Assembly: GCA_965215015.1 (NCBI GenBank)
Contig: OZ244042.1
Location: 4,032,001 to 4,096,000 of the forward strand
Direction of reading: 5' to 3'
DNA from: Candidatus Poribacteria bacterium
Lineage (GTDB): Bacteria > Poribacteria > WGA-4E > PCPOR2b
DNA length: 64,000 nucleotides
Of the stretch, positions 2,499 to 43,609 are shown piece after piece. The notes below the pieces were generated by a model. It searched no databases. It had not been told where the DNA came from and saw nothing but the letters and a program-made list of their open reading frames with translations. Both the position numbers and the translations under genes were made by a program. Position 1 is the stretch's first letter; each line of letters starts with the position of its first letter.

Positions 2499-2514
2499 GC
2501 TTTCGCGGATTACC

Positions 2515-3144
2515 ATGGAAACCGTAGACACTCCAGTTACAGGTGTGATACTTGCTGGCGGTCAAAGCCGGCGAATGGGACAAAACAAAGCTCTGATGTT
2601 TTTAGGAGATGAGCCACTCATCGTACAGGTCGTCCGTCAGATGGAATTGGTCACAGATGAACTCCTGTTAATCACGAACGAACCAAATCTATACACAGGC
2701 TTGAAGGTGCCAATGTATACGGATATGCTGCCAGATATGGGAGCATTAGGAGGTCTCCAGACAGGATTAACTTACGCAACAAACAGTACTATACTCTGTG
2801 TCGGCTGCGATATGCCGCTGCTACAACCGAATCTCCTATCTCACCTAACTACCCTCCTCGGTAATTATGATGCTGTGGTCCCGTGTGTTGAAGCAGCAGA
2901 CCGGTCGACCATCGTATTTCAAACCTTGTCCGCTGTTTATTCCAAGGGGTGTTTGCCTGTCATCGATGGGATGCTGGCAGCAGGTGAATTGCGCGTTCAT
3001 GCACTGTATGATCGGATTGATACTCGTATTGTCCAACCGCATGAATGGCAGGCGTTCGATCCACAGGGCCTTTCGTTTTTTAACATTAACACACCTGAAG
3101 ATTTTGAAAAGGCTAACAGATATATTAGAGAGGGCTTACGTTAA
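2515..3144 (+). CDS. mobA: Molybdenum cofactor guanylyltransferase
   Basis: GVILAGGQSRRMGQNKA, GCDMPLL and FFNINTPEDF motifs; adjacent to moeA; in-frame ATG at 2515. Confidence 0.92.
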   Translation: METVDTPVTGVILAGGQSRRMGQNKALMFLGDEPLIVQVVRQMELVTDELLLITNEPNLYTGLKVPMYTDMLPDMGALGGLQTGLTYATNSTILCVGCDMPLLQPNLLSHLTTLLGNYDAVVPCVEAADRSTIVFQTLSAVYSKGCLPVIDGMLAAGELRVHALYDRIDTRIVQPHEWQAFDPQGLSFFNINTPEDFEKANRYIREGLR

Positions 3145-3291
3145 AAGAAAGTACAAAACGCCAAGAGGGTGAAAGGTAATGCCCCAATCGGGAGAACACC
3201 CGGAACATTTGCGGGACACACCGGGTATTGGGGGTGCCCCTACGGTGTCTTTTGCACGATTTTTTAACATGAGCCATTGGAGGAAATCATC

Positions 3292-26235: not shown

Positions 26236-26273
26236 ATCACCAAAATACATCACATGCTGGAGGGGCGATAATC

Positions 26274-27638: not shown

Positions 27639-27682
27639 AGGTACTAGTACGATAAGGATAATCCCCCGAAGGAGGAAACACG

Positions 27683-28444
27683 ATGATTCAAAACGTTCTC
27701 GTCGCGATTGGCGACACCCCCCACGAAAAAAATGCCTTTGAATATGCCGGGCATTTAGCTGTCCTGTTAGACGCCCACCTTTCGTGCGTCCACTTTGCCG
27801 ATGAAACACATCACGGTCAGGAAGACATTGCCGCCAGAATTTTCGACAACATAGACTCGGCACTCGCTGAGTTCGAGTTTTTATCCGCACACGTTGATAC
27901 CATCACTGGCAATCCTGTAAGAAACCTCTGTGAAAAGGCACATACTGCCGATCTCGTCGTGGTCGGTATCCCTGAATCAATTAAGAGGCAGGGATTGCGA
28001 TTGATCCACGACAGGATTGACGATATTTTGTCCCACATTACAAAGCCGACGATTGTTGTCCATGAGCAATGTACAATTCTGAAGAAAATCTTAACAGTCC
28101 ATCACGGCGATGCGGCATCCGACCACGTCCTTGAATTGGCAGCGGAATTGGCAAAGCGAACCAAGGCAAGCTTACTCAATTTGGCACTGGCGAATACACA
28201 GATAAGGGCCGCTGAGATTTCTGGACAGATGCGTGAGTATTTGCAATACCACAACGTGGAAACAGAGTTCAGAGCACAGGTAGGTTTCACCGTAACCAAC
28301 ATTCTGGAAACAGCATCGAAAGAGGACTGTGACCTAATCGCGCTGAGTGCAAATTATCATGGGCGGTTGTATGAGCTGATTTTTCAGGACACGACGGAGA
28401 TGGTTGTGAAACTCGCGGATCGAGCGGTACTTGTCACTCGGTAG
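27683..28444 (+). CDS. Universal stress protein (tandem USP domains)
   Basis: MIQNVLVAI, ADLVVVG, KKILTV, CDLIAL and AVLVTR motifs. Confidence 0.8.
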   Translation: MIQNVLVAIGDTPHEKNAFEYAGHLAVLLDAHLSCVHFADETHHGQEDIAARIFDNIDSALAEFEFLSAHVDTITGNPVRNLCEKAHTADLVVVGIPESIKRQGLRLIHDRIDDILSHITKPTIVVHEQCTILKKILTVHHGDAASDHVLELAAELAKRTKASLLNLALANTQIRAAEISGQMREYLQYHNVETEFRAQVGFTVTNILETASKEDCDLIALSANYHGRLYELIFQDTTEMVVKLADRAVLVTR

Positions 28445-28655
28445 TGTATCGATGTTACGGTTTTGGCGGTGCTCGTTGCTTTTCCCTTCATCCCCGCACC
28501 GTTCAAAGACCGAGAGTGAAACGTGAAGCGTAACACGTGAAAGCAATTGGTTCACGGGGGCATCAACGAATCCATGAGCACTTGGCGGATAAGATCAAAG
28601 CCAACCTGAAGGACGACCTCTTGGAAATTCACTTGTCGCAGAAGGGTGAGGTGAT

Positions 28656-29900
28656 ATGATGGGGCTCGGGCTATTTGAACCGCTAGCGATTGCGCTCGGC
28701 GTGGGGTTGTTAGTTGGCATGCAGCGGGAGAGGAAGACGTCTTCTATTGCGGGCATCCGCACCTTTCCACTTATCACCATACTGGGCTCGCTTTCGGCCC
28801 TACTTGCGGACGCGTTCAACGGTTGGGTTCTCGCGGCGGGGTTTCTCGCTGTGAGCACGATGCTGTTGGTTGGCGATCTAGAACAATTTGGCAAGGGAGA
28901 GATTAATCTTGGCCTGACGACGGAGATGGCGGGGTTAGTCATGTTCGGCGTTGGGGCTGCGCTCATTAAAGGCTACACGGCTCCAGCGATTGCGGTCAGC
29001 GGCGTGGTGGTGGTGCTACTACACTGGAAGCAGCCTCTCCAGAACTTCGTCAACAAGATTAGTGAGAGCGATTTCAAGGCAATTATCCAGCTGGTGCTGA
29101 TTGGGCTAGTCGTCCTGCCCGTGCTGCCGAACCAGACATATGGCTGGTACAACGTTCTCAACCCCTACAAGATTTGGTTGATGGTAGTTCTGATTTCGGG
29201 TATCAGTCTGATTGCCTATGTCGCATACAAACTTCTGGGGGCTCGGGTCGGTGCGATTCTCGGTGGTGCGCTGGGTGGGTTTATCTCTAGTACTGCGACG
29301 ACCGTCAGCTTTTCACGACAAACCAAGACACATTCTGATGCCGCGCCGATGGCCTCCCTGGTTATCCTGATTGCGTCTACGACTGTATTTGGACGTATCC
29401 TGTTGGAAATTGGCATCGTCGCTCCCGAATTTTTGCCAAGTGCCGCCGCCCCGCTTGGAATTGTAATGGGACTAATGGCGATACTCTGCGTCATCTGCTT
29501 TCTGCGAGTAGGGGGAAATAGTATAGACAATCCGACACACAACAACCCAGCGCAATTGAAAGTGGCAATAATCTTTGGGGGCTTATACGCGGTCATTCTC
29601 CTCGCTGTTGCCGCAGCCAAAGTGCACTTCGGCACTGGGGGTATGTATCTCGTGGCGATGCTGTCGGGCCTGACTGACATGGACGCGATTACGCTTTCAA
29701 CCGCAGAATTGGTGAAGACAGGGCGCGTCACCACTGACACCGGTTGGCGGGTGATTCTCCTAGCGGCACTATCTAATCTGGTGTTTAAAGGGGGGGCGGT
29801 CGCCGTGCTTGGCAGCCGCAGCCTTCTGATTTCTATTTCAATTCTATTTTCCATAGCACTGACCGGCGGCGGATTGTTGTTGGCATTTTGGCCGTATTGA
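28656..29900 (+). CDS. MgtC/SapB family membrane protein with DUF4010 domain
   Basis: GLLVGMQRE..AGIRTF, GLTTE, NPYKIWLMVVLI, GGFISSTATT and GLTDMDA motifs. Confidence 0.9.
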   Translation: MMGLGLFEPLAIALGVGLLVGMQRERKTSSIAGIRTFPLITILGSLSALLADAFNGWVLAAGFLAVSTMLLVGDLEQFGKGEINLGLTTEMAGLVMFGVGAALIKGYTAPAIAVSGVVVVLLHWKQPLQNFVNKISESDFKAIIQLVLIGLVVLPVLPNQTYGWYNVLNPYKIWLMVVLISGISLIAYVAYKLLGARVGAILGGALGGFISSTATTVSFSRQTKTHSDAAPMASLVILIASTTVFGRILLEIGIVAPEFLPSAAAPLGIVMGLMAILCVICFLRVGGNSIDNPTHNNPAQLKVAIIFGGLYAVILLAVAAAKVHFGTGGMYLVAMLSGLTDMDAITLSTAELVKTGRVTTDTGWRVILLAALSNLVFKGGAVAVLGSRSLLISISILFSIALTGGGLLLAFWPY

Positions 29901-30180
29901 GAGAGGCACTTTGTCTCGTAGGGAGAAACAACCCGTTAGGCAGGCAAAACTCTTACCACGCTTGAGTAAAGAAACCAGGGCCATGTGAAAAGAAAGTGCA
30001 AAAGGCGAGGCGCGTGAAAGGTGAAAACAGTTGGCTCATGGGTGCGGTCGGGCTTGGAAGCCCGACCTACGGGGCTCAGAAAAAAAGAAAATGCAAAGCC
30101 TGCAGAGAAACTGTAGAGGCAGGTTGCCCCGCCCCTCCTTGCCAAAAACTCGGTTGCTGTTGCACGATTTCTTAATATGA

Positions 30181-30524
30181 TAGGACTTACGCAGTTGAAC
30201 GTTCAAACCCGCGTATTTCGGTGTCTCATCAAATACTGAGTGTGTCCCTCGACAGTTCACGACGCCCGATGAATCGGGCAACTCCAGTTCAGCCGACAGG
30301 AGTCGGCCCGCTCCGCGTGCCATCCCCTTGCTTGCGGGAGGAAGCCCCCCCTAACCCCCCCGCAAGCGGAGGGGAAAGAACGCAGGCGAGGGGGATAGAG
30401 GGGGGACACCCCACCACCGGGTATTTAGCGGGGGGAAGGGGGGACGGCATACGATGGCGTATACCTACTCCCTTAAAGACGCTGGTTGAATTGCGCGGCT
30501 ACAAACTCAAGTGTGTAACTCCTA
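30181..30524. mobile_element. MITE-like element, family A (opposite orientation to 24494)
   Basis: Starts TAGGACTTACGCAGTTGAAC and ends ACAAACTCAAGTGTGTAACTCCTA. Confidence 0.65.
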
Positions 30525-30654
30525 ACATGCGCCAGAAGCAAAAAGCCTATACTCTTGGGACGATAAAATGAACAGATGAACAAATGACGCAATATGCAAT
30601 ACGTCACACATATTACGCATGAGGTGCTCTCGCGGTAACTGGAGAAGATTACAC

Positions 30655-33198
30655 ATGACACAAGTAACCCGAACTGAATTATCCCCAGATCAGCTCCGTT
30701 TCACATGCGACGAGGCGCAATTCGACTTCGCGTCCACGGCGGAGGTGCTGTCGCTCCCCGAAAGAATGGTAGGACAAGATAGGGCGCTCCGGGCGGTCAA
30801 CTTCGGCGTGTCGATGCCCAATGAAGGGTACAATATTTATGCCATGGGCCCGCCGGGGGCTGGGAAAATGTCATCTATTACCGAATTTCTGTACAGACGT
30901 GCCCGTGAGATGCCACGCCCCGACGATTGGTGCTATGTCATGAATTTTGCCAATCCGGATCGGCCGCACTATCTCAAGCTGCCTTCGGGAGAGGGAGCAG
31001 CGTTCCAAAAGGATATGGAAGGCCTGATTGAGGAATTGCGTCAGGACATCCCCCGCGCCTTGGAAAGCGAGGATTACGAGAACGAGCGAAATCGCATTAT
31101 GCAGGAGGTTCAGCGCAAACAGAATGCCCAATTTTCCCAATTAGACCAAACTGCCCAAGAACAAGGCTTTGTGATCCAAAGGGGGCAGTTCGGCGTGTTC
31201 TTCGTGCCGCTCGTTGATGGCGAGCCAGCAACCGCCCCGGAGCAGTTGACCCAGTTATCTCTCGAACAACGTCATGAGATGGAAAGGCGGGGTGAACAAC
31301 TGCAAACCGAATTGAACCAAACCATGCGAGCGGTGCAGACCATCGTCAAGGAGGGACGAAGCCAACTGGCAGAACTGGAACGGAACATTGTAATGTCTGC
31401 CATTGGTCCCCATATTGAAGAATTAAAAGAAAAATACGCCGCCCGTGTGCCCGTTGTCAGCTATCTGAACGATATGCAGCGGGACATCATCGATCACGGC
31501 AACGCATTTCACGCCAGCAAGGAAGGCGAGCAACAGGCCCCCACCCCCTCTGGGATATTGCAATCCGAAATCTCATTTGACCGCTACAAAGTGAATCTAA
31601 TCGTTGACCATTCCCAGACGGAAGGTGCACCCGTTAAAATCCTAAACAACCCGACGTATCAGAACCTGATTGGACAGGTGGAACGACAGGCACAATTTGG
31701 GGCGTTGATTACCGATTTCACACTGATCAAAGCGGGGGCGTTGCACCGAGCGAATGGTGGCTATCTAGTGGTGGAAGCCTCCCATCTGCTGCGACAGCCG
31801 TTTGCTTATGAAGTATTGAAACGCGCCTTGCACGCCCGGGCGATTCACATCACCGAACTCGGACAGGAGTATAGCCTGATGAGCACGGTTTCCATTGAAC
31901 CGGAGGCAATACCTTTAGATGTCAAGGTGGTGATAATTGGTAACCCGATGTACTATTATCTGTTGCAGGCGTATGACGAGGAATTCGGCGAGCTTTTTAA
32001 GGTGCAGGCGGACTTCGACAGTGTCATGGATCGCACGCCAGAAAACATTGCGAGCTACGTGCAATTTCTCAAAGCAAGATGTGACGATGAAGGTCTGAAG
32101 CATTTTGCGCCTTCGGGTGTGGCGCGGTTGGTCGAGTACAGTGTTGAATTAACCGGCGATCAGGAGAAGTTGAGCACGCAGTTTGCCGAGATTTGTGACC
32201 TTGCCCGCGAAGCCAGCTTTTACGCGGGACAGAACGGGCATTCAGAGGTGCCCCGCGATGCGGTGCAACAGGCTATTACCGAGAAAATCTATCGGTCAAA
32301 CCGTATTGAACAACGCCTCGCTGAAATGATTGAAAAGGGACACATCTTCATTTCAACTGAGGGCGAGGTAGTCGGTCAGGTCAATGGCCTCTCTGTCCTC
32401 GGCCTGGGGAATTATTCCTTCGGTAAGCCATCCCGTATCACAGCTCGAACCTACATGGGCAGCGGTGGGGTAGTTAGCATCGAACGGGAGGTGCGAACTT
32501 CAGGCCCGATTCATAACAAGGGTGTCATGACGTTGACCGGCTACATCAACGGGAAGTACGGTCAGGATCAACCGATTTCGATGTCTGCCCAACTCAGTTT
32601 TGAGCAGTTGTATGAAGGTGTTGAAGGTGATAGCGCGTCATCAACAGAACTGTACGCGCTCTTGTCATCGCTTTCCGGTTTTCCAATCAAGCAAGGGTTC
32701 GCCGTCACCGGATCCGTGAATCAACACGGCGAGATCCAGCCTATCGGCGGTGCGACGGAGAAGATTACCGGCTTTTATGAAGTTTGCAAAACCTTCGGAT
32801 TCACCAGCGACCAGGGCGTGTTGATTCCGCGGACTAATATAAAAAATCTGATGCTCAAAGCAGAGATTGTTGAAGCGGTGCGCGCAGGGAAATTCCATAT
32901 CTATCCGGTCGAAACCATTGATGTGGGCATCGAAATCCTAACAGGGGTACCGGCAGGGGCACGCGATGAAGATGGTAATTACCCAGCAGGTACGGTCAAT
33001 TGGGCGGTAGAAAAACGCTTAAACCAATTCGCCGCAGGGTGGAAGGCGTTCCAGTCGGATAAGGAGACAGCGGCGGAGAAATCCGACAATGAGGAAGAAG
33101 AAACCAATATACCTGAACCACCCAAAGAAGATGCCGGCATTCTCAGGAAGGTGTTTTCTTGGTGGGGCCGCGAGAAGGGAGACACCCGATGCGAATAA
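30655..33198 (+). CDS. Lon-like protease (LonC/AAA_32 type)
   Basis: GQDRA, GPPGAGK, DWCYVMNF, GALHRANGGYL, GQVNGL, catalytic EGDSAS, TGSVNQ.GEIQPIGG.TEKI motifs. Confidence 0.93.
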   Translation: MTQVTRTELSPDQLRFTCDEAQFDFASTAEVLSLPERMVGQDRALRAVNFGVSMPNEGYNIYAMGPPGAGKMSSITEFLYRRAREMPRPDDWCYVMNFANPDRPHYLKLPSGEGAAFQKDMEGLIEELRQDIPRALESEDYENERNRIMQEVQRKQNAQFSQLDQTAQEQGFVIQRGQFGVFFVPLVDGEPATAPEQLTQLSLEQRHEMERRGEQLQTELNQTMRAVQTIVKEGRSQLAELERNIVMSAIGPHIEELKEKYAARVPVVSYLNDMQRDIIDHGNAFHASKEGEQQAPTPSGILQSEISFDRYKVNLIVDHSQTEGAPVKILNNPTYQNLIGQVERQAQFGALITDFTLIKAGALHRANGGYLVVEASHLLRQPFAYEVLKRALHARAIHITELGQEYSLMSTVSIEPEAIPLDVKVVIIGNPMYYYLLQAYDEEFGELFKVQADFDSVMDRTPENIASYVQFLKARCDDEGLKHFAPSGVARLVEYSVELTGDQEKLSTQFAEICDLAREASFYAGQNGHSEVPRDAVQQAITEKIYRSNRIEQRLAEMIEKGHIFISTEGEVVGQVNGLSVLGLGNYSFGKPSRITARTYMGSGGVVSIEREVRTSGPIHNKGVMTLTGYINGKYGQDQPISMSAQLSFEQLYEGVEGDSASSTELYALLSSLSGFPIKQGFAVTGSVNQHGEIQPIGGATEKITGFYEVCKTFGFTSDQGVLIPRTNIKNLMLKAEIVEAVRAGKFHIYPVETIDVGIEILTGVPAGARDEDGNYPAGTVNWAVEKRLNQFAAGWKAFQSDKETAAEKSDNEEEETNIPEPPKEDAGILRKVFSWWGREKGDTRCE

Positions 33199-33602
33199 AG
33201 TTGTGGGACCCGTTGCAGGAATTGGCTGAATTTGAGCGGACCGTCGACCGGCTGTTGGGCCGAGGTCGCCACCGGATGAGTTACGGCTATCCGCCGATTG
33301 ATCTCATGGATACCGGAGCCGCATTTGTGCTGTCGGCGCGCCTGCCCGGCGTCTCGACAGACCAGATTCGCCTCTCGGTTTCCGGCACGACGGTCACACT
33401 TGAGGGACAGCGTGAGCCGATGGTCATGGAAGGCGCAACCCCGATTTTGCGTGAACGCCTCTACGGGCAGTTTCGCAAAAGCATTGACTTACCCGAACCG
33501 GTACACGAGGAAGAAGTCAAGGCACAATACACCGATGGCATCTTGCAGGTGACGCTACCCAAAGGCCGTCAGCTTCAGCCGAAAACCATCCCAATCCAGT
33601 AA
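33189..33602 (+). CDS. Hsp20/alpha-crystallin small heat-shock protein
   Basis: PPIDL, LPGV, RERLYGQFRKSIDLP and AQYTDGILQVTLPK motifs. Confidence 0.9.
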   Translation: MRIKLWDPLQELAEFERTVDRLLGRGRHRMSYGYPPIDLMDTGAAFVLSARLPGVSTDQIRLSVSGTTVTLEGQREPMVMEGATPILRERLYGQFRKSIDLPEPVHEEEVKAQYTDGILQVTLPKGRQLQPKTIPIQ

Positions 33603-33630
33603 TACTAAATACGTACAAGGAGAACTAAAG

Positions 33631-33999
33631 ATGCTGACTTTCAATCTCTCGAGGGAACCGGCGCGACAGTCCCTGACACCGTTTGTTGATATTTACGAGC
33701 TGCCCAACCGCGTGGTCGTGCTAGCGGATATGCCTGGCGTTTCCAAAGCAGGTGTGGATATTCGGGTGATTGATAACCGCCTGATGATTCGTGGGCAATG
33801 CCCTATGAGAAGGGATGGGGTTTGCCTAATTGGGGAATGCGCCCACTACGACTATTATCGCTCCATAAAACTGTCCGCCGCCATTGATGCCGAAAACATA
33901 CAGGCGGAGATGAAGGATGGCGTCCTCACATCGATCTTACCCAAACGGCGGTTGGGCAGGTCGGTCGAGGCGTCAATTTCCATTGAGGACGAGCTTTAA
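33631..33999 (+). CDS. Hsp20/alpha-crystallin small heat-shock protein
   Basis: PFVDIYE, ADMPGV and IQAEMKDGVLT.ILPK motifs. Confidence 0.88.
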   Translation: MLTFNLSREPARQSLTPFVDIYELPNRVVVLADMPGVSKAGVDIRVIDNRLMIRGQCPMRRDGVCLIGECAHYDYYRSIKLSAAIDAENIQAEMKDGVLTSILPKRRLGRSVEASISIEDEL

Positions 34000-34107
34000 T
34001 GCTTTAATGACGACAAGCATTGGAGCTTGGCACAAGAGGAATCAAAACTCAATAACGCTTCGTGCATCGGCGGTGTCCCAAAAGCTGATACCATATTTTT
34101 GGAATGC

Positions 34108-34566
34108 TTATTTACGTGGCAAATGGATCAAACCGTGTCGTCGTGTTGACCATTCCTGGGCAACAATACGGAAAATATCGGATTCTGTAATGATACCAAC
34201 AAGGCTTCCACCTTCGGGGTCAACAACAGGTAGACCGCTAATCTTGTTTTCAAGCATCTTCTGCGCTGCCTTGCCAATCGTCGCATCCTCAGCAATCGTT
34301 ATTGGATTAGGTGTCATTACTTCCTCCACCGTGATCTGTTCCAGCTTTTGAGAGAGCGTCTGTTCCCTATCGGTTAATAAATCAAACGGTTTCACTCGAT
34401 ATAGATCGCTCAAAGTCAGGATGCCAACGAGCTGACGGGAAGCAACGACCGGCAGCCGCCGAACACGGTCACCAATCATCAATTGATATGCTTCGATAAT
34501 CTCTGTTTCCGGGTTGACTGTGCTCAAGTCTTGCGACATCCAATTCCGAACCAATGTATGAATCAT
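34108..34566 (-). CDS. CBS-domain pair protein
   Basis: VRNWMS, VRRLPVV..LVGILT.SD, VEEVMTPNPITI and ISGLPVVD..LVGIITESDI motifs. Confidence 0.92.
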   Translation of the reverse strand: MIHTLVRNWMSQDLSTVNPETEIIEAYQLMIGDRVRRLPVVASRQLVGILTLSDLYRVKPFDLLTDREQTLSQKLEQITVEEVMTPNPITIAEDATIGKAAQKMLENKISGLPVVDPEGGSLVGIITESDIFRIVAQEWSTRRHGLIHLPRK

Positions 34567-34635
34567 TTTGAAACTCCTTTCTCGCCATTGCTATCGTACC
34601 GAGTCGGTTGCGGTTTCCTACCTTCCTAATGATTG

Positions 34636-34651
34636 AGCAAAAGTGATGCCA
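34636..34651 (-). promoter_or_regulatory. Sigma54 (-24/-12) promoter of the CBS gene
   Basis: Minus strand reads TGGCATCACTTTTGCT, an exact GG-N10-GC, ~70 bp upstream of the ATG. Confidence 0.75.
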
Positions 34652-34658
34652 GTCAAGA

Positions 34659-34864
34659 TTGCCGTACTCCCAACCCTAAAGGCTTGGGATTCTTACTTGT
34701 TTCTTTAGAGTGGAATTGCTCTATCCTGTCTGTTAGGTTTCACCTAACGAACAGTCTGACAACCGTCAAAGTGAGCCATTGGAAGATGGGCTTACTACTT
34801 CTCCTGAGAGGGTGAACGCCTCCACCCGAAAGATATTGACCTCGGCGTTGCAACCTCTATCTAA
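34659..34864 (-). mobile_element. Remnant of an IS200/IS605 element: tnpB 3' end, omega-RNA region and right end
   Basis: Minus strand translates LDRGCNAEVNIFRVEAFTL (cf. TnpB RuvC-III DRDxNAAxNI) and ends GAATCCCAAGCCTTTAGGGTTGGGAGTACGGCAA. Confidence 0.7.
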
Positions 34865-34868
34865 CTGA

Positions 34869-35021
34869 GAGGTGCTCATAATTATTGTATGAATCACGGA
34901 TTAAACTGATGAAGCGGATGGCACGGATACAGATATTGGTTTCAGACGGTAGATGGGGCAAGATGCCCCACCTATGGGGTCGGGTATATTTTGTTGTTCC
35001 CTATTCGGGGTGGGAGTTTAA
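34869..35021. repeat. Family B repeat, truncating the tnpB remnant
   Basis: ~150 bp homologous to the reverse complement of ~11572-11722. Confidence 0.65.
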
Positions 35022-35512
35022 TCGGATTGTCTTTCTGTTTTTCATATTTGTCTGACTGGAATGTGGGAGACCCTATTGTGTGATAGGGATCAGATTCTCC
35101 CACGAAAGACAAAAGAAGTATACCCTATTTAGCCTGCAAATTCAACCGTTTTTGCTTAACAACACGCTTTGGCTGACTACAAAGATTATTAGGTACCACC
35201 TAACAATCTTTTCCCGCCTAAAGGTTTGGGCTGCGGGGACTTGTCAGCAAGATTTGATAATTTTGGCTAAAAGCCATGTCGAATTTACATCACTACTTGG
35301 GAGGTAACATCAATCAAGAGGCGGAGATAGCAGCGAAACGGGTTTTAAGTAATCCCAAAATACTGGTCTTCAGATATGGTCACTCTGTCTGCATTTATAA
35401 CGATTAGACTCTGCATTAAAATGCCGGTCTTAGGCAGCCCTTGTGTTACTGGACTCAATCCCTATTTGGGCTAGTACCACCTGTATTATGCCCTCGACGT
35501 TTCATGTTCCAA

Positions 35513-35610
35513 TTTTGACAAAATGTCAATCTGATTTTGGAAAAATCGAGGGTTTTTGACAAAATGTCAGATGAAAATGTGGATATATTGCTATTTTTGA
35601 CAAAATGTCA
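35513..35610. promoter_or_regulatory. Three identical sites TTTTGACAAAATGTCA with palindromic core; putative enhancer (UAS) for the sigma54 activator
   Basis: Exact 16-mers at 35513, 35554 and 35595 (41-bp period), about 135-230 bp upstream of a sigma54 promoter. Confidence 0.75.
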
Positions 35611-35745
35611 ATTTTGGCGGATTTTCTCCTGACTTTTTCCAGTATCTGAAACGTTCAGCGCGAGAAGTTGAAATGTCCGATGAAGCCTTACGGTTTTTAC
35701 CTTCCTCGCCTCATTCTCTCCCTCCACTTTATCAATCCACTATCA

Positions 35746-35761
35746 TGGCATAGTGATTGCA
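35746..35761 (+). promoter_or_regulatory. Sigma54 (-24/-12) promoter of the nos operon
   Basis: TGGCATAGTGATTGCA, an exact GG-N10-GC. Confidence 0.8.
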
Positions 35762-36010
35762 CATATTACACACTAGGGACCTATGCCCGGAGCACGGTTC
35801 AAAATGCGCTGGGGCATATTAATCTCCACAATGAGTAGATAGGGGCTTTTTTCTGAATTTAACGCAAGGACGCGGGGTCACAAGCCTCCCCTTACAAAAT
35901 GGAAAACCGGAAGACACTTCTCTGGTTTTCCCGTTTTCTTTGCGTCCAAGCGTCTTATTAAAAGCCTGTAACGACTTATTCCGTTAATCTTTACAAAGGA
36001 GAAAATCACC

Positions 36011-38005
36011 ATGCAACACACAATTCAGCGACACCCGCTTTCAATGCTAGGACTTGCAATACTTGGCGTGATTCTATACTTGGGCAGCTCCCAGTCTTTA
36101 CATGCACAGCTTCCCGCCGATGCGATGCGCATCGCGCAGGAACGTAGTTTAACCCCTGATGACATCAAAGCTGCCTTGGCAACCTATACTCCCACCGGCA
36201 GGCATGATGAGTATGTGATGTTTTCTTCGGGGGGGCATAGTGGGCAGGTCATTGTTGTTGGTTTGCCCTCAATGCGTATCCTGAAGGTCATTGCGGTCTT
36301 TACGCCTGATCCGTGGCAGGGGTACGGTTACGGAGTGAAGGATTCGCCCTTAGACACTTCAAGCGAGGGGGTGACTGTCGATGGACAATCCCTGACTTGG
36401 GCGGATACCCACCATCCCGCATTAAGTGAAACTCAGGGTGATTACGACGGTGAGTACCTGTTCATCAACGACAAAGCCAATGGCCGGATTGCGGTCATTG
36501 ATTTGAAGGATTTTGAAACAAAACAGATTATCAAGAACCCAATCTTCCTCAACGATCACGGTGCAACAATGGTAACCCCGGATACTGAGTATGTGGTGGA
36601 AGGCTCACAGTACGCCATGCCGCTAGGTAATGAATATGCTCCCATTGCCAACTACAAAGAAAAGTATCGAGGGTTGATGACCTTCTGGAAATTTGACCGT
36701 AGCAAAGGGCGTGTTGTCAAAGATGAGTCGTTTGGAGTTGAACTTCCACCTTACTGGCAAGACCTCGCAGATGCTGGAAAGTTGACGAGCGATGGTTGGG
36801 TCTTCTGCGGTTCGTTTAACTCTGAGTTAGCAACCGGGGGCATCGAAAATGGAAATCCTCCCTTTGAGGCAGGCACAGCTGAACGGGATATGGATTATCT
36901 GCATCTCATCAATTGGCGCAAAGCCGAGGCGGCCTTTAAGGCAAGTAAGGTCAAGAAAATTAAGGGCTTCCCGGTGATTACAATAGAGACTGCCGTTGCT
37001 GAAGGTATTCTTTATCTGACGCCTGAACCCAAGAGCCCACACGGTGTTGATGTTAGCCCCAGTGGAAACTACATTATTGTTTCGGGCAAGCTGGATCCGC
37101 ACGTCACAGTATATCACATTGATAAAATTAAGAAGGCCATTACCGACAAAGATTATGAAGGTATAGATGAGTACGGTATACCAATCTTACGATTTGATGC
37201 AGTCAAGGAAGCGCAGATAGAGGTTGGATTGGGCCCCCTTCATACCCAATTCGATAATAAGGGGTATGCCTACACCAGTCTGTTTCTTGACAGTGCGGTT
37301 GCACGATGGACATTGGGTCCAGATGCGAAATATAAAGCTCCGGAGCGTCCATGGAGACTTATCCAGCAGCTGCCCGTCCATTACAACATAGGACATCTCG
37401 TGGCTGCAGAGGGTGACACGGTTGACCCGGATGGAAAGTATCTCGTTTCTCTTAACAAATGGGCGGTAGACCGTTTCCTGAATGTGGGACCGCTACTTCC
37501 ACAGAACCTTCAATTGGTTGATATATCCCAAGAGGGCGATGGCATGGGCTTGCTCTATGACATGCCACTGGGCATTGGTGAACCTCACTATGCACAAATT
37601 ATCAAAGCGGATAAGCTGAAGGCATGGGAGGTTTATCCTGAAGTTGGCTGGGATACTATCAAGCAACAGAAGCATCCGAAAGCATCGCTCAAAGGTTCAA
37701 TTCAGCGGAATGGAGACACAGTGGAAGTCTTCATGACCGCTATTCGTAGTCACTATGAACCTGAGATTGTAGAGGTCAACAAAGGCGATCGCGTGATATT
37801 GAATCTCACCAATCTTGAACGAACCTACGATGCGACGCACGGCTTCGCCCTACCCGGCTATAATATCACCTCAAGTATTGAGGCTGGTGAGACCGTCACG
37901 CTCGATTTTGTTGCCAATAAGGAGGGCGTCTTTTCCTTTTACTGTACCGAGTTCTGCTCAGCACTCCATCTGGAAATGGCAGGATATTTCCTTGTCAAAC
38001 CGTGA
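36011..38005 (+). CDS. nosZ: Nitrous-oxide reductase, clade II (Sec-dependent)
   Basis: FSSGGHSGQ, DTHHP, INDKAN.RIA, KSPHGVDV, LGPLHTQF, HYNIGH and EPHY motifs; CuA site THGF...CTEFCSALHLEM; signal peptide lacks twin arginines. Confidence 0.97.
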   Translation: MQHTIQRHPLSMLGLAILGVILYLGSSQSLHAQLPADAMRIAQERSLTPDDIKAALATYTPTGRHDEYVMFSSGGHSGQVIVVGLPSMRILKVIAVFTPDPWQGYGYGVKDSPLDTSSEGVTVDGQSLTWADTHHPALSETQGDYDGEYLFINDKANGRIAVIDLKDFETKQIIKNPIFLNDHGATMVTPDTEYVVEGSQYAMPLGNEYAPIANYKEKYRGLMTFWKFDRSKGRVVKDESFGVELPPYWQDLADAGKLTSDGWVFCGSFNSELATGGIENGNPPFEAGTAERDMDYLHLINWRKAEAAFKASKVKKIKGFPVITIETAVAEGILYLTPEPKSPHGVDVSPSGNYIIVSGKLDPHVTVYHIDKIKKAITDKDYEGIDEYGIPILRFDAVKEAQIEVGLGPLHTQFDNKGYAYTSLFLDSAVARWTLGPDAKYKAPERPWRLIQQLPVHYNIGHLVAAEGDTVDPDGKYLVSLNKWAVDRFLNVGPLLPQNLQLVDISQEGDGMGLLYDMPLGIGEPHYAQIIKADKLKAWEVYPEVGWDTIKQQKHPKASLKGSIQRNGDTVEVFMTAIRSHYEPEIVEVNKGDRVILNLTNLERTYDATHGFALPGYNITSSIEAGETVTLDFVANKEGVFSFYCTEFCSALHLEMAGYFLVKP

Positions 38006-38069: not shown

Positions 38070-41000
38070 ATGCTTCTAAGAGTTGAACGCCCCCGGCGCG
38101 AGTGGTTGGTAAGTGCGTTGCTAATTGTCGCAGGTATCCTGCTGCTCGTTTCGTTGCTTTTTCCCTACTGGCGCGTAGATCTTGAAGCGGGCATTTATCC
38201 GAAAGGATTAACGCTCCAACTTCGTCCCTACCGTCTTGAGGGAGATATCACAGAAATCGATGAACTGAACCATTATATCGGGATGCGAGCGCTAGAGTCC
38301 GCGGGAAAACTGGAGCGAACGATTGCTATTCCCTTAATCATCACTGCGGGCTTATGCCTGCTAATTGCGGGCTTGGTTCCCCGGAAATGGTCAATGTGGC
38401 TGACACTCCCCGGCTTAGTGTTCCCGGTTGTTTTTTTAGGTGAATTGTATTGGTGGTTGGCAGATAGTGGTCTACATCTTGATCCAAAGGCACCACTCAA
38501 CCAATCAATAAAACCGTTCATCCCACCTATTTTTGGGGAGGGACGAATCGCACAGTTCAACGCAAATGCTTCCTTTCAGATTGGATTTTACCTTGCGCTG
38601 CTTGGGGCGGTATTATCAAGGGCGGCATTCTATCTGAAAAAGCCAGAATGGTTAGCAAAAGGATTAATAATTGATGCATCAGTGCTGTTAGTTATTTCGC
38701 TGCTTTTCCCTTACTGGCGCGTAGATTTTGAGTCGCGAAAATTTCCGAAAGGCGCTATACTTCAGATTCGACCGAACCGTATAGAAGGAAATATCCGAGA
38801 AGTGGACAAGCTGAATCGCGATATTGGAATGCGGGATATTGAATCGGCGGGACAATTTGAACGGAAGATTGCCATTCCATCTATTGTAGTTGTGGCATTA
38901 TGTTTGTTGAGTTCAGTCTTTGTGCCGCGAAAATGGTCATCTTGGTTGGCGTTACCCGCCCTAATTTTCCCAATCGTTTTTGTTGGCGCGCTCTATGGGT
39001 GGCTGCGCGACAGTGGACTCAATCTTGATCCCGAAGTCGCGCTCTACCCGGACATCGAACCCTTCATCCCTCCAGTCGTCGGCACGAAAACAGTCAAATC
39101 GGTCACCACGACCTCGACATTTCAGATTGGGTTTTACTTCACCATTTTGACCGCTCTGCTATCTATCTTTGCACTTCTACTCAAAAGAAGATACCGAGTC
39201 TTTCATCCCAAGCAAACGATGATAGGAATTGCTTTGGCCATATCTCTACTTTTAGCCCCTTCAGCTTCCATCGCTGCAACTCTTACAATTGACGCAAGCT
39301 CCAGCATTAGCGACACGATAAAACGTGCTGCACATGGCGATACAATTATTGTGAAAGGTGGGGTTTATAATGAGCGATTCGCCCTCAATAAATCCGTAAC
39401 CCTCCGCGGAGAAGATGGAGCAGTCATTGACGGAGGGGGAGTTGGTAGTGTCATTACAGTCAGTGCACCAGCCACGGTTGTCCGTGGATTCACAATTCGG
39501 AATACCGGCGACCGGCTCTCTGAAGGTGATGCCGGGATTATGATTAAAAAAGCGAAGGGCGTAATTATTGAAGGAAACCGAGTTGAGGATGCTTTATTCG
39601 GGGTTCAAGTGCGAAATGCCCCGGATAGCATCGTCCGAAATAATACCTTCTACGGTAAGGACCTGGATGTAGGACGTCGGGGCGATCTGATTCGTGTCTG
39701 GTATAGCAGTGGTGCGGTGGTCGAAGATAACCGTGTCTTTGATGGTCGTGATGTCGTCATCTGGTATTCAAAAGGCGTCACAGTTCGTAGGAATGAGGTT
39801 CGCAACGGACGTTACGGCATTCACTTCATGTATTGCGACGATGCGACGATTGAAGATAATCGTCTGATCGGCAACTCGGTTGGGGTTTATTTAATGTATA
39901 GTTACCGTTTGCAGCTCCAGAAAAACTGGGTGATAACCAATCGTGGTGCTAGTGGCTACGGGATTGGGCAGAAGGATATGTACGACGGGCTTATCGCTGA
40001 CAATTTCGTTGCAGACAATCGGGCGGGAATGTTCATGGACAATTCGACGAACACTTTTCGCAATAACCTAATCGCTTTTAATGATTTTGGAATGCTTGCA
40101 CTCCCGTCCGCTCGGAAGAACACTTTTGCTGGGAATAGTTTTGTTGACAACGGCGAACAGGTGACTATTGAGGGGCAGGGACGGCTTGGCACCAACCAAT
40201 GGATTGGCAATTACTGGAGTGATTACAACGGTTACGATGCAAATGGGGATGGAGTCGGGGACATGCCCTATCGGTCAGTACATCTTTTTGAGAAGCTAAC
40301 CGAGCAGTATCGCGCGTTACGAATTTTCACCTATAGCCCATCAGTGCAGGCACTTGATTTTGCCTCCCGGCTCTTTCCTGTTTTTATGCCTCAACCGAAG
40401 CTGGTGGATGACAGTCCGCGTATGCGTCCCGTGATGCCCAATCTCAAAGCACCGAAAGGGAAGCTATCATCGGCATGGCTGTTGGGGGCTTCGGCGTTAT
40501 TTCTTTCGGCTCTATCCATCGCCGGTCACTTGAACAGATGGTTACAGCCTCTTGTGGATCGCTTCCTATACCTTACCAGGCCTCAAGACTCAAAACACAA
40601 AGCACCATGTGAATCGTATAACACGCGACTAGTTCCGACTATATCCGTCGATCATTTGACTAAACGTTTTGGTAAAGCGACTGCGGTAGAACGATTGAGT
40701 TTCGATATATCCCCCGGAGAAACGGTAGCGTTGTGGGGTCCAAACGGTGCCGGTAAAACAACTGCCTTGCGTTGTGTGTTGGGAGTATTGCCTTTCGATG
40801 GAACGATTACAGTTGGTGGCAATTCGTCGCGTACCGAAGGCAAAATGGTTCGCCAACAGATTGGTTACGTTCCACAGGAGGTCCGTCTCCACAGCGACTT
40901 GACAGTGCAGGGAACAGTTTCATTTTATGCCCGCCTGCGAAATGTTTCTAGAGATCGGTTGACAACCTTGATGGCTGAGTGGAATTTAGCAGGGATTGCG

Positions 41001-41507
41001 GATAAACGGGTTGGAAATCTTTCCGGTGGCATGAAGCAACGTTTGGCGTTGGCGATCGCGCTGCTTTCAGATCCACCGATTCTGTTGCTAGACGAACCGA
41101 CGAGTAACCTAGATGTTCATACCCGCCATGAGTTCTGGGCAGCACTCGAAAATCTCAAGAAATCAGGTAAGACCTTAATCTTCTGTACCCATAGACTTGA
41201 TGAAATTTTCAGACTGGCGGACCGTGTTATTGTCATGGAGGAAGGAAAGAAGATTGCCGAGGGTCCTCCGATGCGCCTTGACGGTCATCTTTCACGAGAT
41301 GTGGTGCTGCACCTGTCAATCCCCGAATCGTTCCATAAGATAGCAGCGAACCTGCTTGAGCAGCAGGGTTTTTCCACAAAATGTAACGGTGTGAAAATCT
41401 CAGTGCAAGCACCACATGACAGAAAAGCTGAACCGTTCCGCGTATTGGCGGAATCTGCCATCCCCATCGACGATTTTGAATTAGCCGACACCCCAGATAA
41501 GGAGTAA
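38070..41507 (+). CDS. Fusion protein NosB-like x2 + NosD (beta-helix) + NosF (ABC ATPase)
   Basis: One uninterrupted ORF: two LFPYWRV..PKG..LN(HY/RD)IGM..PFIPP units; NosD motifs (GRYGIHFMY, NYWSDY.GYD.NGDGVGD.PY); a TM helix; Walker A GPNGAGKTT, LSGGMKQ, LLLDEPT and H-loop CTH. Confidence 0.9.
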   Translation: MLLRVERPRREWLVSALLIVAGILLLVSLLFPYWRVDLEAGIYPKGLTLQLRPYRLEGDITEIDELNHYIGMRALESAGKLERTIAIPLIITAGLCLLIAGLVPRKWSMWLTLPGLVFPVVFLGELYWWLADSGLHLDPKAPLNQSIKPFIPPIFGEGRIAQFNANASFQIGFYLALLGAVLSRAAFYLKKPEWLAKGLIIDASVLLVISLLFPYWRVDFESRKFPKGAILQIRPNRIEGNIREVDKLNRDIGMRDIESAGQFERKIAIPSIVVVALCLLSSVFVPRKWSSWLALPALIFPIVFVGALYGWLRDSGLNLDPEVALYPDIEPFIPPVVGTKTVKSVTTTSTFQIGFYFTILTALLSIFALLLKRRYRVFHPKQTMIGIALAISLLLAPSASIAATLTIDASSSISDTIKRAAHGDTIIVKGGVYNERFALNKSVTLRGEDGAVIDGGGVGSVITVSAPATVVRGFTIRNTGDRLSEGDAGIMIKKAKGVIIEGNRVEDALFGVQVRNAPDSIVRNNTFYGKDLDVGRRGDLIRVWYSSGAVVEDNRVFDGRDVVIWYSKGVTVRRNEVRNGRYGIHFMYCDDATIEDNRLIGNSVGVYLMYSYRLQLQKNWVITNRGASGYGIGQKDMYDGLIADNFVADNRAGMFMDNSTNTFRNNLIAFNDFGMLALPSARKNTFAGNSFVDNGEQVTIEGQGRLGTNQWIGNYWSDYNGYDANGDGVGDMPYRSVHLFEKLTEQYRALRIFTYSPSVQALDFASRLFPVFMPQPKLVDDSPRMRPVMPNLKAPKGKLSSAWLLGASALFLSALSIAGHLNRWLQPLVDRFLYLTRPQDSKHKAPCESYNTRLVPTISVDHLTKRFGKATAVERLSFDISPGETVALWGPNGAGKTTALRCVLGVLPFDGTITVGGNSSRTEGKMVRQQIGYVPQEVRLHSDLTVQGTVSFYARLRNVSRDRLTTLMAEWNLAGIADKRVGNLSGGMKQRLALAIALLSDPPILLLDEPTSNLDVHTRHEFWAALENLKKSGKTLIFCTHRLDEIFRLADRVIVMEEGKKIAEGPPMRLDGHLSRDVVLHLSIPESFHKIAANLLEQQGFSTKCNGVKISVQAPHDRKAEPFRVLAESAIPIDDFELADTPDKE

Positions 41508-41510
41508 GCC

Positions 41511-42347
41511 ACGACCACTGCAATTTCTAACATCTTTGTTATAATGGGCAAAGAGATACAAGATTCTCGGCGCAACCGATGGTTTCTACTGTTTGCGGTT
41601 GTTTTTACCGGACTAGCACTCGGATTAAGTACGCTCGGATTTTCGGGGCTAGGGACTTTCGGCGTAGCAGGCTTTGGGCGCACTGTTGCCAGCCTCATCA
41701 ATCTTGTTGTACTGATTGCGCCACTGATGGGTTTACTGCTCGGTGCCATCAGTATATCGGGTGAACGGGAACGGGGAAGTTTACTTCCGATTCTAGCGCA
41801 GCCTGTGACGCCAACGGAAGTATTGCTCGGAAAGTTTTTCGGAACAGCATCCGCACTCACTGCAGCAATCCTTTTCGGATTCGGACTGAGCGGATTTGTG
41901 ATTGCGTGGCGAGGCGGCTTCGCCCAACTGGATGACTACCTGATGCTGGTGGGGTTGACCTTGCTGCTCGGTCTTGTCCATCTCAGCATTGGCTTCTGTT
42001 TATCTGTTCTCACATCAAAAAGCGCGACAACATTGAGCCTTGCCCTAATCCTATGGTTGTCAATTGTGTTTCTGAGTGATCTCGGGCTCATTGGGACAGC
42101 AATTGTGTTAAAATTATCTCCGGAAATATTGCTCGCAGCGGTGCTGCTAAATCCGGTACAGGTTTTCAAATTGGCGGCGATTCAGATGATACAGGGGAAC
42201 TTAGAATTACTCGGCACTGCAGGACGCTACGCTGCGGATGTGCTAGGGGATTTCTTGCTGCCGGTACTGATGACATTCCTTATTTTCTGGATGCTTATCC
42301 CACTCGGAATTGCAATTTACATCTTTCCACGAAGGGGTGCACAATGA
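41511..42347 (+). CDS. nosY: ABC transporter permease NosY
   Basis: KEIQDSRRNRW, ISGERERGSL..ILAQPV..EVLLGKF and LLNPVQVFK motifs; six hydrophobic segments. Start uncertain: ACG 41511 behind the RBS, or ATG 41544. Confidence 0.88.
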   Translation, partial: TTTAISNIFVIMGKEIQDSRRNRWFLLFAVVFTGLALGLSTLGFSGLGTFGVAGFGRTVASLINLVVLIAPLMGLLLGAISISGERERGSLLPILAQPVTPTEVLLGKFFGTASALTAAILFGFGLSGFVIAWRGGFAQLDDYLMLVGLTLLLGLVHLSIGFCLSVLTSKSATTLSLALILWLSIVFLSDLGLIGTAIVLKLSPEILLAAVLLNPVQVFKLAAIQMIQGNLELLGTAGRYAADVLGDFLLPVLMTFLIFWMLIPLGIAIYIFPRRGAQ

Positions 42348-42817
42348 AATTGATGAAGATGGAAGGTAGGGAAACACCCGTTACTGGTTTCGTATCTATT
42401 CTACTTATCATCGGATTAATCATGACCGGATGCGGGTTTCAAGATAACGGTGCCCCCCGCATCCGATACGGTGAAGAAACCTGCGATCGATGCCGCATGA
42501 TTATCAGTGAAAAGCGGTTCGCCGCTGCATATCGAACCGAATCCGGTGTATTGCGAAAGTTCGACGATTTGGGTTGTGCAGTGCTCCACCCTAAAGAACA
42601 AAGGGAAACGGTAACGCAATTTTGGGGATATGACTACGAAGAAACCGATTGGTTAGAGGTAAAACAAGCGTTTTTGGTACATAGTTCAGAGCTATTGACC
42701 CCGATGGGGTATGGAATTGTTGCCCTTACAACCGCTGAAAAAGCCACAACACTAGCAAAAAAGGTAAATGGTCAGATAGTGCAGTTTGACCAGCTTTATC
42801 CAATTTTACAACCGTAA
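42344..42817 (+). CDS. nosL: Copper chaperone lipoprotein NosL
   Basis: Lipobox MTGC; CDRCRMII; KFDDLGC; TPMGYG. Confidence 0.9.
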   Translation: MKLMKMEGRETPVTGFVSILLIIGLIMTGCGFQDNGAPRIRYGEETCDRCRMIISEKRFAAAYRTESGVLRKFDDLGCAVLHPKEQRETVTQFWGYDYEETDWLEVKQAFLVHSSELLTPMGYGIVALTTAEKATTLAKKVNGQIVQFDQLYPILQP

Positions 42818-42832
42818 ATGAGAGGAGAATGA

Positions 42833-43609
42833 ATGATGTTACTCAAACGAACCGTATACATCGGATTGGTACTAACCTCGGTTTTATGTACTGTAGCTGT
42901 TGTCCAGTTGGGTTGGACGACGGAACAGGAAAAAGTTGACCCTTCCATATCGCAAACCGAAGCAACACCGGATACCGCTACCATCATTGGCACGGTGAAA
43001 TTTGAAGGGGAGGCACCTTTCCGGCGTGCAATTAATTTCGGTGCCAATTTGGACTGCAAACGGCTACACGATGGCAAAGTTTATTACGAGGATGTTATCA
43101 TCAATCAGAATGAGACCCTCAAGGATACGCTTGTTTATGTCAGAGGGAAACCGAAAGGTGACTACAAGCCATCGAGTAAACCTTTTGTAGTCGATCAGAT
43201 AGGTTGTATATTTATCCCACACGTTGCGGCGGTAATGGTCGGTCAACCGATGGAGTTCCTCAATAGCGATCCGGCACTTCATAATATCCGAACTGAATCC
43301 AAGAAGCAGACTCCGTTTAACATTTCCCAGCCGAATAAAGGTATGAAATACACGCACCAATTTGAGGCAGCCGAAATTGGCATTCCGCTCCGGTGCGATG
43401 TGCATCACTGGATGGTCGCTTACGCTCATGTCCTATCTCACCCATTCTTTGCCGTTACCGGCGAGAAAGGCACTTTCAAGATTCAAGGGCTGGTGCCTCG
43501 TACTTACAACATCGAGGCATGGCATAGTAAGCTGGGCAAACAGGTACAGAAAATTAAGTTGGAGGCAGGAGAAACCAAGAGGGTGGATTTTGTATTTACT
43601 AGCGAGTGA
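42833..43609 (+). CDS. Exported cupredoxin-like / carboxypeptidase-regulatory-like domain protein
   Basis: DQIGCIFIPHV, NSDPALHNI, CDVHHWM, HPFFAVT..GTFKI and YNIEAWH motifs. Confidence 0.75.
   Translation: MMLLKRTVYIGLVLTSVLCTVAVVQLGWTTEQEKVDPSISQTEATPDTATIIGTVKFEGEAPFRRAINFGANLDCKRLHDGKVYYEDVIINQNETLKDTLVYVRGKPKGDYKPSSKPFVVDQIGCIFIPHVAAVMVGQPMEFLNSDPALHNIRTESKKQTPFNISQPNKGMKYTHQFEAAEIGIPLRCDVHHWMVAYAHVLSHPFFAVTGEKGTFKIQGLVPRTYNIEAWHSKLGKQVQKIKLEAGETKRVDFVFTSE

Follow-up and report, generated by a model that had tools for sequence, protein, structure and literature searches.

Clade II organisms are thought to be major sinks of nitrous oxide (N2O). In Wolinella succinogenes, the one clade II organism tested, the NosB protein is reportedly required for N2O respiration; to our knowledge, no function has been established for NosB, and it has neither a Pfam family nor a structure. 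The passages devoted to NosB in PMC11409646 and bioRxiv 10.1101/2024.05.17.594689 define it as a membrane protein of four or six helices encoded beside clade II nosZ, and those in PMC9697520 (citing van Spanning 2011) give LNHYIGM and YGHN as its conserved stretches. Fusions of NosB to NosL (PMC9697520) and to NosC2 (PMC11409646) are described in the same parts of these sources. In Pseudomonas stutzeri, according to the sections of PMC13685413 on the transporter, an ATP-binding cassette (ABC) engine, NosF2Y2, carries one periplasmic NosD (NosDF2Y2); Cu(I) goes from NosL to NosD, NosL is exchanged for NosZ when ATP binds, and NosZ is set free on hydrolysis. The same sections record no sulfur transport by NosDFY. 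The P. stutzeri proteins are three separate polypeptides (D1F2Y2) of a clade I system without NosB. The locus described here differs on each of these counts. It lies in a 64,000-nucleotide stretch (hereafter the window, whose coordinates are used throughout) corresponding to positions 4,032,001 to 4,096,000 of contig OZ244042.1 in the Candidatus Poribacteria assembly GCA_965215015.1. A single gene at 38070..41507 on the + strand, nosB-nosB'-nosD-nosF, encodes a protein of 1145 amino acids (aa) in which NosD and NosF form one chain through a membrane helix, at a 1:1 ratio, with two NosB units ahead of them.

The open frame ends at 41507 and could start at GTG 38064 (1147 aa) or at ATG 38070 (1145 aa). 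The latter was taken as the start because the sequence AGGGGAA lies 7 nt upstream and because a 98% identical database protein from another assembly (P0006) has 1145 residues. All modules are on the + strand. The first two are NosB units of the same fold, each with four membrane helices and a periplasmic sheet: unit 1 (residues 14-193; 38103..38642) contains an exact LNHYIGM at positions 68-74, and unit 2 (residues 196-375; 38649..39188) has degenerate motifs, with LNRDIGM at the corresponding place and the changes His70 to Arg, Tyr71 to Asp and Phe165 to Val. The two units are 56% identical over 180 residues, without a gap (BLASTP E 1e-71). They are followed by a segment resembling a signal peptide (residues 374-404; 39183..39275), with a basic n-region (KRRYRVFHPKQ), a 14-residue h-region, Pro399 and the residues S-I-A before Ala405. 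The NosD beta-helix (residues 416-788; 39309..40427) scores 413 bits with TIGR04247 (cut-off 300), covering positions 2-377 of the 377 in the model; it also matches Pfam NosD (E 5.5e-44) and, in a PDB sequence search, P. stutzeri NosD (7o0y_A, E 6.2e-38). A single membrane helix (40464..40565; residues 801-823 by hydropathy, 803-834 in the structural model) tethers NosD to the NosF ATPase (residues 860-1139; 40641..41480). The latter is recognized by ABC_tran PF00005 (113.7 bits, residues 876-1014) and matches P. stutzeri NosF (7o0y_B, E 7.8e-36). Its full set of catalytic motifs (Walker A G892-T900, Q938, signature S987-Q992, D1010/E1011 and H1043) is invariant across 106 aligned homologues. 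No NosF-specific NCBIfam model reached its cut-off for the ATPase, the best rows being generic ABC families.

Hydropathy analysis shows four plus four helices, then a helix at 384-411 ending in APSASIA, then the helix at 801-823, and two AlphaFold2 models reproduce these helices. Helix count and the positive-inside rule predict a self-consistent topology: N-terminus inside, eight helices, helix 9 running outward, NosD in the periplasm, helix 10 running inward and the ATPase in the cytoplasm. The original prediction, made from the DNA letters alone, had listed all of these elements (one 1145-aa open reading frame (ORF) with two NosB-like units, a signal-like helix, NosD, a membrane helix and an intact ATPase). 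Each was confirmed in its place, with module coordinates correct to about 40 nt; the implied topology, argued there to be coherent, is so by helix count and charge, and the recommended check of membrane helices and signal peptides found the four plus four helices, the signal-like junction helix and the tether helix as claimed.

The N-terminal region has no ready name. Residues 1-410 gave no Pfam or NCBIfam match, with only chance-level rows at E up to 10; a PDB sequence search with residues 1-409 returned nothing, and the Atlas matches for this region are unnamed clusters of single-unit proteins. Several features nevertheless place both units with NosB. The ORF starts at 38070, directly after the end of a Sec-type nosZ (38005); hydropathy and the AlphaFold2 models both give each unit four helices; and LNHYIGM is exact in unit 1, the unit 2 version (LNRDIGM) departing from it. 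The two-unit query matches a NosB::NosL protein of 339 aa with a C-terminal Pfam NosL domain (P0299; E 1.3e-11, 31% identity). Unit 1 shares 44-54% identity with free-standing relatives of about 220 residues. Of 80 loci of single-unit relatives (the best genomic loci, chosen by likeness to free NosB), 78 have nosZ immediately upstream, and the order is always Z-B-D-F-Y-L. On the strength of position, helix number, LNHYIGM, the homology to P0299 and these nosZ-adjacent relatives, the units are filed, from sequence, as NosB. An exhaustive search for the family yielded 758 representative proteins at E up to 0.001. The post-nosZ position, the four-helix polytopic form and LNHYIGM are shared with the NosB proteins of W. 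succinogenes, Gemmatimonas and flavobacteria. The cited passages describe clade II NosB as a single unit that stands alone or is joined to NosL or NosC2, whereas here a tandem pair, its second member degenerate, is fused to NosD-NosF. Free-standing NosB proteins (P0145, P0153, P0182, P0150, P0163 and others) carry no Pfam domain and are named 'cytochrome C' at NCBI, 'copper chaperone NosL' at JGI, or 'hypothetical'; this misnaming is probably inherited from NosB-NosC2 and NosB-NosL fusions.

The doubling of NosB is old and goes back to one event. In a tree of 213 units, those corresponding to unit 1 are monophyletic (support 0.87), as are those corresponding to unit 2 (0.999), and the two groups together form one clade (0.997), so that one duplication preceded the diversification of the clade. 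All named members of the clade are labelled Candidatus Poribacteria, except for one 'Dehalococcoidia' label. Since the duplication the copies have fared differently: unit 1 lies on average 0.36 from the duplication node, unit 2 about twice as far (0.73). Twenty-one positions are at least 90% conserved among 113 diverse single-unit members of the family. Unit 1 retains 19 of them, including the near-invariant His70, Tyr71, Met74, Gln164 and Phe165; unit 2 retains 12, its losses including His70, Tyr71 and Phe165. The exhaustive search also uncovered a second protein with two NosB units, P0392 (383 aa; present in full length on two contigs). Its units share 37% identity and fall in the subfamily of the NosB-NosL type, in a clade of 12 (support 0.977) far from the window's clade, and therefore represent a second, independent duplication. 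The asymmetry recurs: the first unit of P0392 has 20 of the 21 family positions and the second 14, its losses overlapping those of the window's unit 2 at Ala42, Pro43, Leu49, Tyr71 and Phe165. Two independent tandems with the same asymmetry would be expected if NosB as a rule pairs and just one periplasmic site per pair is needed.

AlphaFold2 modelled residues 1-409 with a predicted local distance difference test score (pLDDT) of 87.6. Each unit is predicted to be a four-helix bundle whose two outward loops form a five-stranded sheet plus a short helix containing LNHYIGM. In an exhaustive structural comparison, proteins of the claudin fold ranked first, with 130-153 residues aligned: the transmembrane AMPA receptor regulatory protein (TARP) gamma-7 (9s41_J; Z 11.9, root-mean-square deviation 3.2 over 150 residues), a designed claudin fold (8oyv_B; Z 10.9), claudin-4 (Z 10.7) and, on unit 2, claudin-19 (Z 10.4), then claudin-15, MP20 and GARLH4; Z values of 10-12 are within the range that helical bundles can reach by chance. 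Plain four-helix bundles aligned over only about 100 residues. Foldseek against the PDB gave the same ranking, but with E values of at least 1.5e-3 and none at 0.001 or below. The only Foldseek match spanning both units, LetA (9n8w_A), had a TM-score of 0.20 and was not counted. Tetraspans of the claudin/TARP/PMP22 type share with the NosB units the four membrane helices and an outward beta-sheet built from both loops; sequence identity is 9-14%, and the likeness is one of fold only, implying no function. The models thus suggest a claudin/TARP-like tetraspan architecture for each unit, by resemblance and not by membership. A homodimer prediction of a free-standing NosB scored 0.00, and nothing was concluded from it.

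Taken together, these data favour, with a probability of about 0.8, a real fused gene with a doubled NosB, the second copy degenerate but functional, whose product acts in the maturation of NosZ. That the gene is genuine and under selection follows from several comparisons. Among the 120 best full-length database matches, 25 have both NosB units, at 59-98% identity and from many assemblies. NosD scores above the cut-off in 12 of the phylum's 176 species genomes. The double NosB unit is found in exactly these 12, and in 11 of them a single open frame of at least 1150 aa spans all modules. Contigs from other public runs differ from this stretch by substitutions only, with no indel and no joint in any run. 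Run X5, from another study, gave 11 identical pieces; run X6, from a third study, gave 3 contigs with 57 substitutions; and run X8 covers just 16 of the 30 bins of the stretch. The original prediction had proposed read mapping across the junctions. In the contig comparison the D-to-F junction (about 40440-40640) is bridged by only one of the compared runs, X2, which may be the source sample, and support for that junction was therefore taken from related genomes. Over 21 pairs of genomes of the same genus, the ratio of nonsynonymous to synonymous substitution rates (dN/dS) was measured for three segments: unit 1 (0.079), unit 2 (0.104) and the N-terminal part of NosD (0.072). A false joining of separate genes by assembly or sequencing could be suspected from the fact that the genome is a single 5.94-Mb contig (such closed assemblies, we would guess, are often made from long reads) and from breaks that do occur in a relative, G042, and in database proteins P0126 and P0247. 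The identical frame in 11 other assemblies, the indel-free contigs of three further runs and purifying selection throughout led us to reject this explanation, whose probability we consider negligible. In G042, the twelfth genome, from the same genus, the NosB region (locus L016, G042:C57:2327-5767, positions 1504-3440) is collapsed and frameshifted: a 175-aa ORF consisting of unit 1 residues 1-147 and an out-of-frame tail overlaps a separate D::F ORF, and about one unit's length is gone, either through a deletion between the repeats plus a frameshift or through an assembly error in this metagenome-assembled genome (MAG) of 130 contigs.

A different objection would be that the duplication is recent and unit 2 a relic in decay, without a function of its own. 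Its loss of 9 of the 21 family-conserved residues and a rate of evolution about twice that of unit 1 are what such a relic would show. Against this stand its dN/dS of 0.104, the 68 of 180 columns that are invariant over 11 species and the conservation of residues specific to unit 2 (for example Asp22, Lys44 and Asp71, invariant in 26 of 26 sequences). Moreover, all members of a clade diverged as far as 59% identity have unit 2, whose loss would invert the topology of all downstream modules. Unit 2 is thus degenerate yet under purifying selection, and the relic hypothesis appears very improbable. What is new about the doubling is that it is one old event in a Poribacteria-labelled clade which left a degenerate but constrained second copy.

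The junction between unit 2 and NosD raises the question of whether the chain stays whole. It reads KRRYRVFHPKQ-TMIGIALAISLLLA-PSASIA/A and has the layout of a cleavable Sec signal peptide: basic residues, then a hydrophobic core of 14, a proline and a small-x-small site. A site obeying the (-3,-1) rule was found after the junction helix in 115 of 115 homologues, as compared to 117 of 272 control outward helices, and in its strict [AVS]-x-A form in 58 of 115 versus 39 of 272; the rule being crude and home-made, and the contrast being overstated because the counted homologues are related, only its direction is taken. The 115 are the homologues with a GDx anchor; three without the anchor were skipped. 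The junction helix is also the lowest-confidence helix of the full-length model (pLDDT 41-51). Moreover, a natural variant is split at this very point. A cluster of proteins with B-B' only (P0246; 43 members of 365-380 residues, some of them Poribacteria-labelled) is matched by D::F proteins, P0118 and P0125, that begin with this signal peptide, and the metagenome locus L097 has the order Z, B-B' (386 aa), D::F, Y, L. At positions 1449-1452 of L097 the TGA stop of B-B' overlaps the TTG start of D::F as TTGA, a form typical of translational coupling. The split, Poribacteria-labelled variant and the window have in common the operon order and a doubled NosB whose unit 2 is degenerate (65% identity). 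The variant differs in that it consists of two genes, its D::F starting with the signal peptide that lies within the chain in the window's protein. The trees of both units put the split form together with the fused P0029 as a basal branch of the clade (support 0.58 and 0.875). The duplication therefore came first, and fusion or fission, in whichever direction, afterwards. From the split variant we read that B-B' and D-F can work without being covalently joined, and the fused form may well be processed.

As judged from sequence, the odds that signal peptidase I cuts the putative signal peptide between B' and D are a little short of even. A precedent is FbcH, the cytochrome b/c1 precursor of Bradyrhizobium japonicum, a polyprotein cut at an internal signal peptide. 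The likeness is that a membrane domain, a signal peptide and a periplasmic domain follow one another in one gene, cleavage in our case being presumed. We attach much the same weight to the converse, namely that the chain is never cleaved, that helix 9 (385-404) is a permanent anchor, and that the 126-kDa chain dimerizes with NosY2 to give two NosD and four NosB units per transporter. Internal signal-like helices after a large membrane domain often remain uncleaved, 11 of 12 species and 92 single-unit homologues have retained the fused frame, which suggests some advantage of linkage, and B::D::F::Y forms exist (P0084, P0094 and P0111) in which full covalent assembly seems intended. Set against these are the h-region of about 14 residues with its proline and small-x-small site, found in all homologues counted and in 43% of the controls, the poor confidence of the junction helix and the split variant. 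The original prediction had also held that the fusion links NosB physically to the maturation machine. The fusion part of this claim stands; the link itself may be transient, given the cleavable-looking junction and the split variant.

Several observations weigh against the preferred reading of a functional doubled NosB acting in NosZ maturation, or against parts of it. At the place of YGHN, unit 1 reads SGLH and unit 2 reads SGLN, with only Gly136 and the following LDP kept in both. P0299 carries YGHNLDP. Since 76 of 88 single-unit fused homologues have Leu in place of the His of YGHN, this stretch marks a subfamily and not the whole NosB family. Unit 1 itself is without Pro43 and Gln44 of the family positions, and the case of P0392 is one of protein sequence. 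As for the models, the predicted template modelling score (pTM) of 0.84 for residues 1-409, which for two equal domains denotes a confidently predicted mutual packing, may partly reflect AlphaFold packing helices across a 3-residue linker, and just 24 homologous rows of the alignment support unit 2. The full-length model has a pTM of 0.48, so that the arrangement of its domains is not predicted, even though NosD has a pLDDT mostly above 90. The crude signal-peptidase rule (see above) belongs here as well. The 1:1 tether of D to F conflicts with the solved NosDF2Y2 ratio. The function, cleavage and assembly of the fused protein are inferred. Finally, the published proposals for NosB, in the passages of PMC9697520 and PMC11539149 that discuss it, include electron transfer as well as copper handling, and fusion partners alone cannot decide between these roles.

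NosB might thus serve electron delivery to NosZ along a quinol- or cytochrome-linked route, the fusion only securing co-expression. A NosB-NosC2 module has been proposed for Wolinella-type clusters (PMC11409646 and PMC11539149, citing Hein 2017, in the parts dealing with these clusters), and nosG, nosH and nosC genes were not found in this operon, so that some other route to NosZ would be needed. The conserved residues speak for something else. The 21 family positions lie at helix ends and in periplasmic loops and include no Cys and one His; no heme, Fe-S or quinone motif was recognized among them; and the recurrent fusion partners, NosL, NosD and NosD-NosF, are parts of copper delivery. The missing cofactor motif, the location of the conserved residues and the identity of the partners together favour a copper-delivery subunit, and the electron route is considered improbable. 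Gene fusions are natural evidence of partnership: NosB is tied to NosD-NosF here and to NosL elsewhere, which favours the copper-delivery role.

How such a subunit might operate can be sketched from P. stutzeri NosDFY-NosL (PDB 7O0Y), whose NosD and NosF are homologous to those of the window, where nosY and nosL adjoin and the same Cu(I) relay is presumed. Given the homology of NosD, NosF, NosY and NosL, the P. stutzeri cycle is the best guess for the present system. The NosB module would have been duplicated once in tandem in the ancestor of the clade, and B-B' would form a covalent asymmetric pseudo-dimer in which one periplasmic site is sufficient. Two fused chains and two NosY subunits would make up the ABC engine, and Cu(I) would pass from NosL to NosD to NosZ as it does with P. 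stutzeri NosDFY. In this scheme NosB could act as an auxiliary membrane subunit built into the chain, perhaps holding a His/Met copper site. If the chain is cleaved, the gene would encode a polyprotein delivering B-B' and D-F in equal amounts at one place. The doubled form suggests that NosB probably pairs, that one intact periplasmic site per pair (His70, Tyr71, Gln164, Phe165) may be enough, and that the B-to-D junction is probably a processing site. In its most specific version, with NosB as a claudin/TARP-like auxiliary subunit of NosDFY, a dimer that engages one partner asymmetrically, and with the fused gene as a polyprotein cut at the signal peptide, the model is speculative and on balance unlikely. 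An asymmetric NosB dimer, if true, would explain two tandems whose first copy alone keeps the His-Tyr...Gln-Phe site and would mirror the single NosD on a symmetric F2Y2 engine.

The stoichiometry deserves separate comment. The original prediction had taken NosDF2Y2 as the established ratio, in agreement with the relevant sections of PMC13685413, and had argued that the tether forces NosD and NosF into a 1:1 ratio. A search of the genome found no second NosD, no further NosB unit and no close NosF, the next ATPase being 39% identical; with no spare NosF or NosD to draw on, the 1:1 ratio is therefore imposed at translation, as had been argued. The engine might then carry two NosD, or one of the two might stay idle or be removed. 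The issue applies to all D::F fusions and not to this gene alone, and the D-F tether thus challenges the generality of the 1:2:2 stoichiometry of Pseudomonas.

Fusion among nos genes proved to be frequent and graded, ranging from separate genes through D::F, B::D and B::D::F to B::D::F::Y. A single-unit NosB::NosD::NosF accounts for 92 of the 120 best full-length database matches, the two-unit form for 25; three of the 92 are the proteins that include NosY as well (see above). The 92 are named only 'NosD' and come from MAGs labelled Isosphaeraceae, Gemmataceae, Planctomycetes and Omnitrophica. In the set of 80 loci, 63 are unfused (52 with complete B, D, F and Y, 11 cut by contig ends), 16 have D::F and one has B::D; B::D proteins of about 600-650 residues were also found. 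The single-unit fusions share with the window's protein the order of modules, the internal signal peptide and the tether helix, at 42-53% identity; they have one NosB unit with all family residues, as opposed to two units in the window's clade. The architecture is therefore not the rarity that it had been taken for. It had been said that the case would fall if the architecture were common and already described: it is common in databases, but a full-text literature search, provisional and confined to main texts, found no description of NosB fused to NosD or NosF. The three-way fusion is thus widespread and apparently undescribed, and the window's gene is a lineage-specific elaboration of it. 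The points that are new to this gene are the degenerate but constrained second copy, the independent tandem P0392, the claudin-like model and the junction that is split or fused at a signal peptide.

The fused gene is part of a compact clade II nos operon, in the order nosZ, nosB-B'-D-F, nosY, nosL, all on the + strand. The nosZ gene (36011..38005) encodes a Sec-dependent nitrous-oxide reductase of 664 aa; it scores 844.7 bits with TIGR04246 (cut-off 625) as compared to 405.6 bits with the Tat-type model TIGR04244, and its translation starts with a hydrophobic signal without a twin arginine. A 64-nt gap separates the nosZ stop from the start of the fused gene. Downstream are nosY, for an ABC-2 type permease of 267 aa (41544..42347; PF12679, E 1.7e-26), and nosL, for a copper chaperone of 157 aa (42344..42817; PF05573, E 4.5e-11) whose translation shows a lipobox-like MTGC. 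The nearest named relatives of the host carry the Candidatus Poribacteria label. A search for sequencing runs containing the stretch listed no RNA run; one run (share 0.26) bears the label 'sponge metagenome', from which no habitat is drawn.

The last gene of the operon (42833..43609, + strand) encodes a secreted protein of 258 aa with a C-terminal CarboxypepD_reg-like domain. Its middle part contains a His...Cys-x2-His-x2-Met pattern resembling a type 1 copper site, and its sole match in a PDB sequence search is a blue copper domain protein (5fc9; E 0.12, residues 127-197). In the Atlas it matches unnamed families of about 250 aa, in which Acidobacteriota are most frequent. This protein could be the electron donor to NosZ in this operon, which is without nosG/H/C.

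The 1.45 kb upstream of nosZ (34567..36010) contain no ORF of more than 75 aa, an unusual length for an intergenic region, and their G+C content is 0.41-0.46, as compared to about 0.48-0.52 in the surroundings. A scan of this gap with Rfam gave nothing near threshold, and scans for promoters and terminators gave counts at chance level. Further upstream (24985..34566) are genes for a histidine kinase with a protoglobin domain, a sigma-54 response regulator, a universal stress protein, an MgtC/DUF4010 membrane protein, a LonC-like protease and two Hsp20 proteins, together with an opposite-strand gene for a CBS-pair protein. The protoglobin sensor pair is a candidate for an O2- or NO-responsive regulator of the nos genes.

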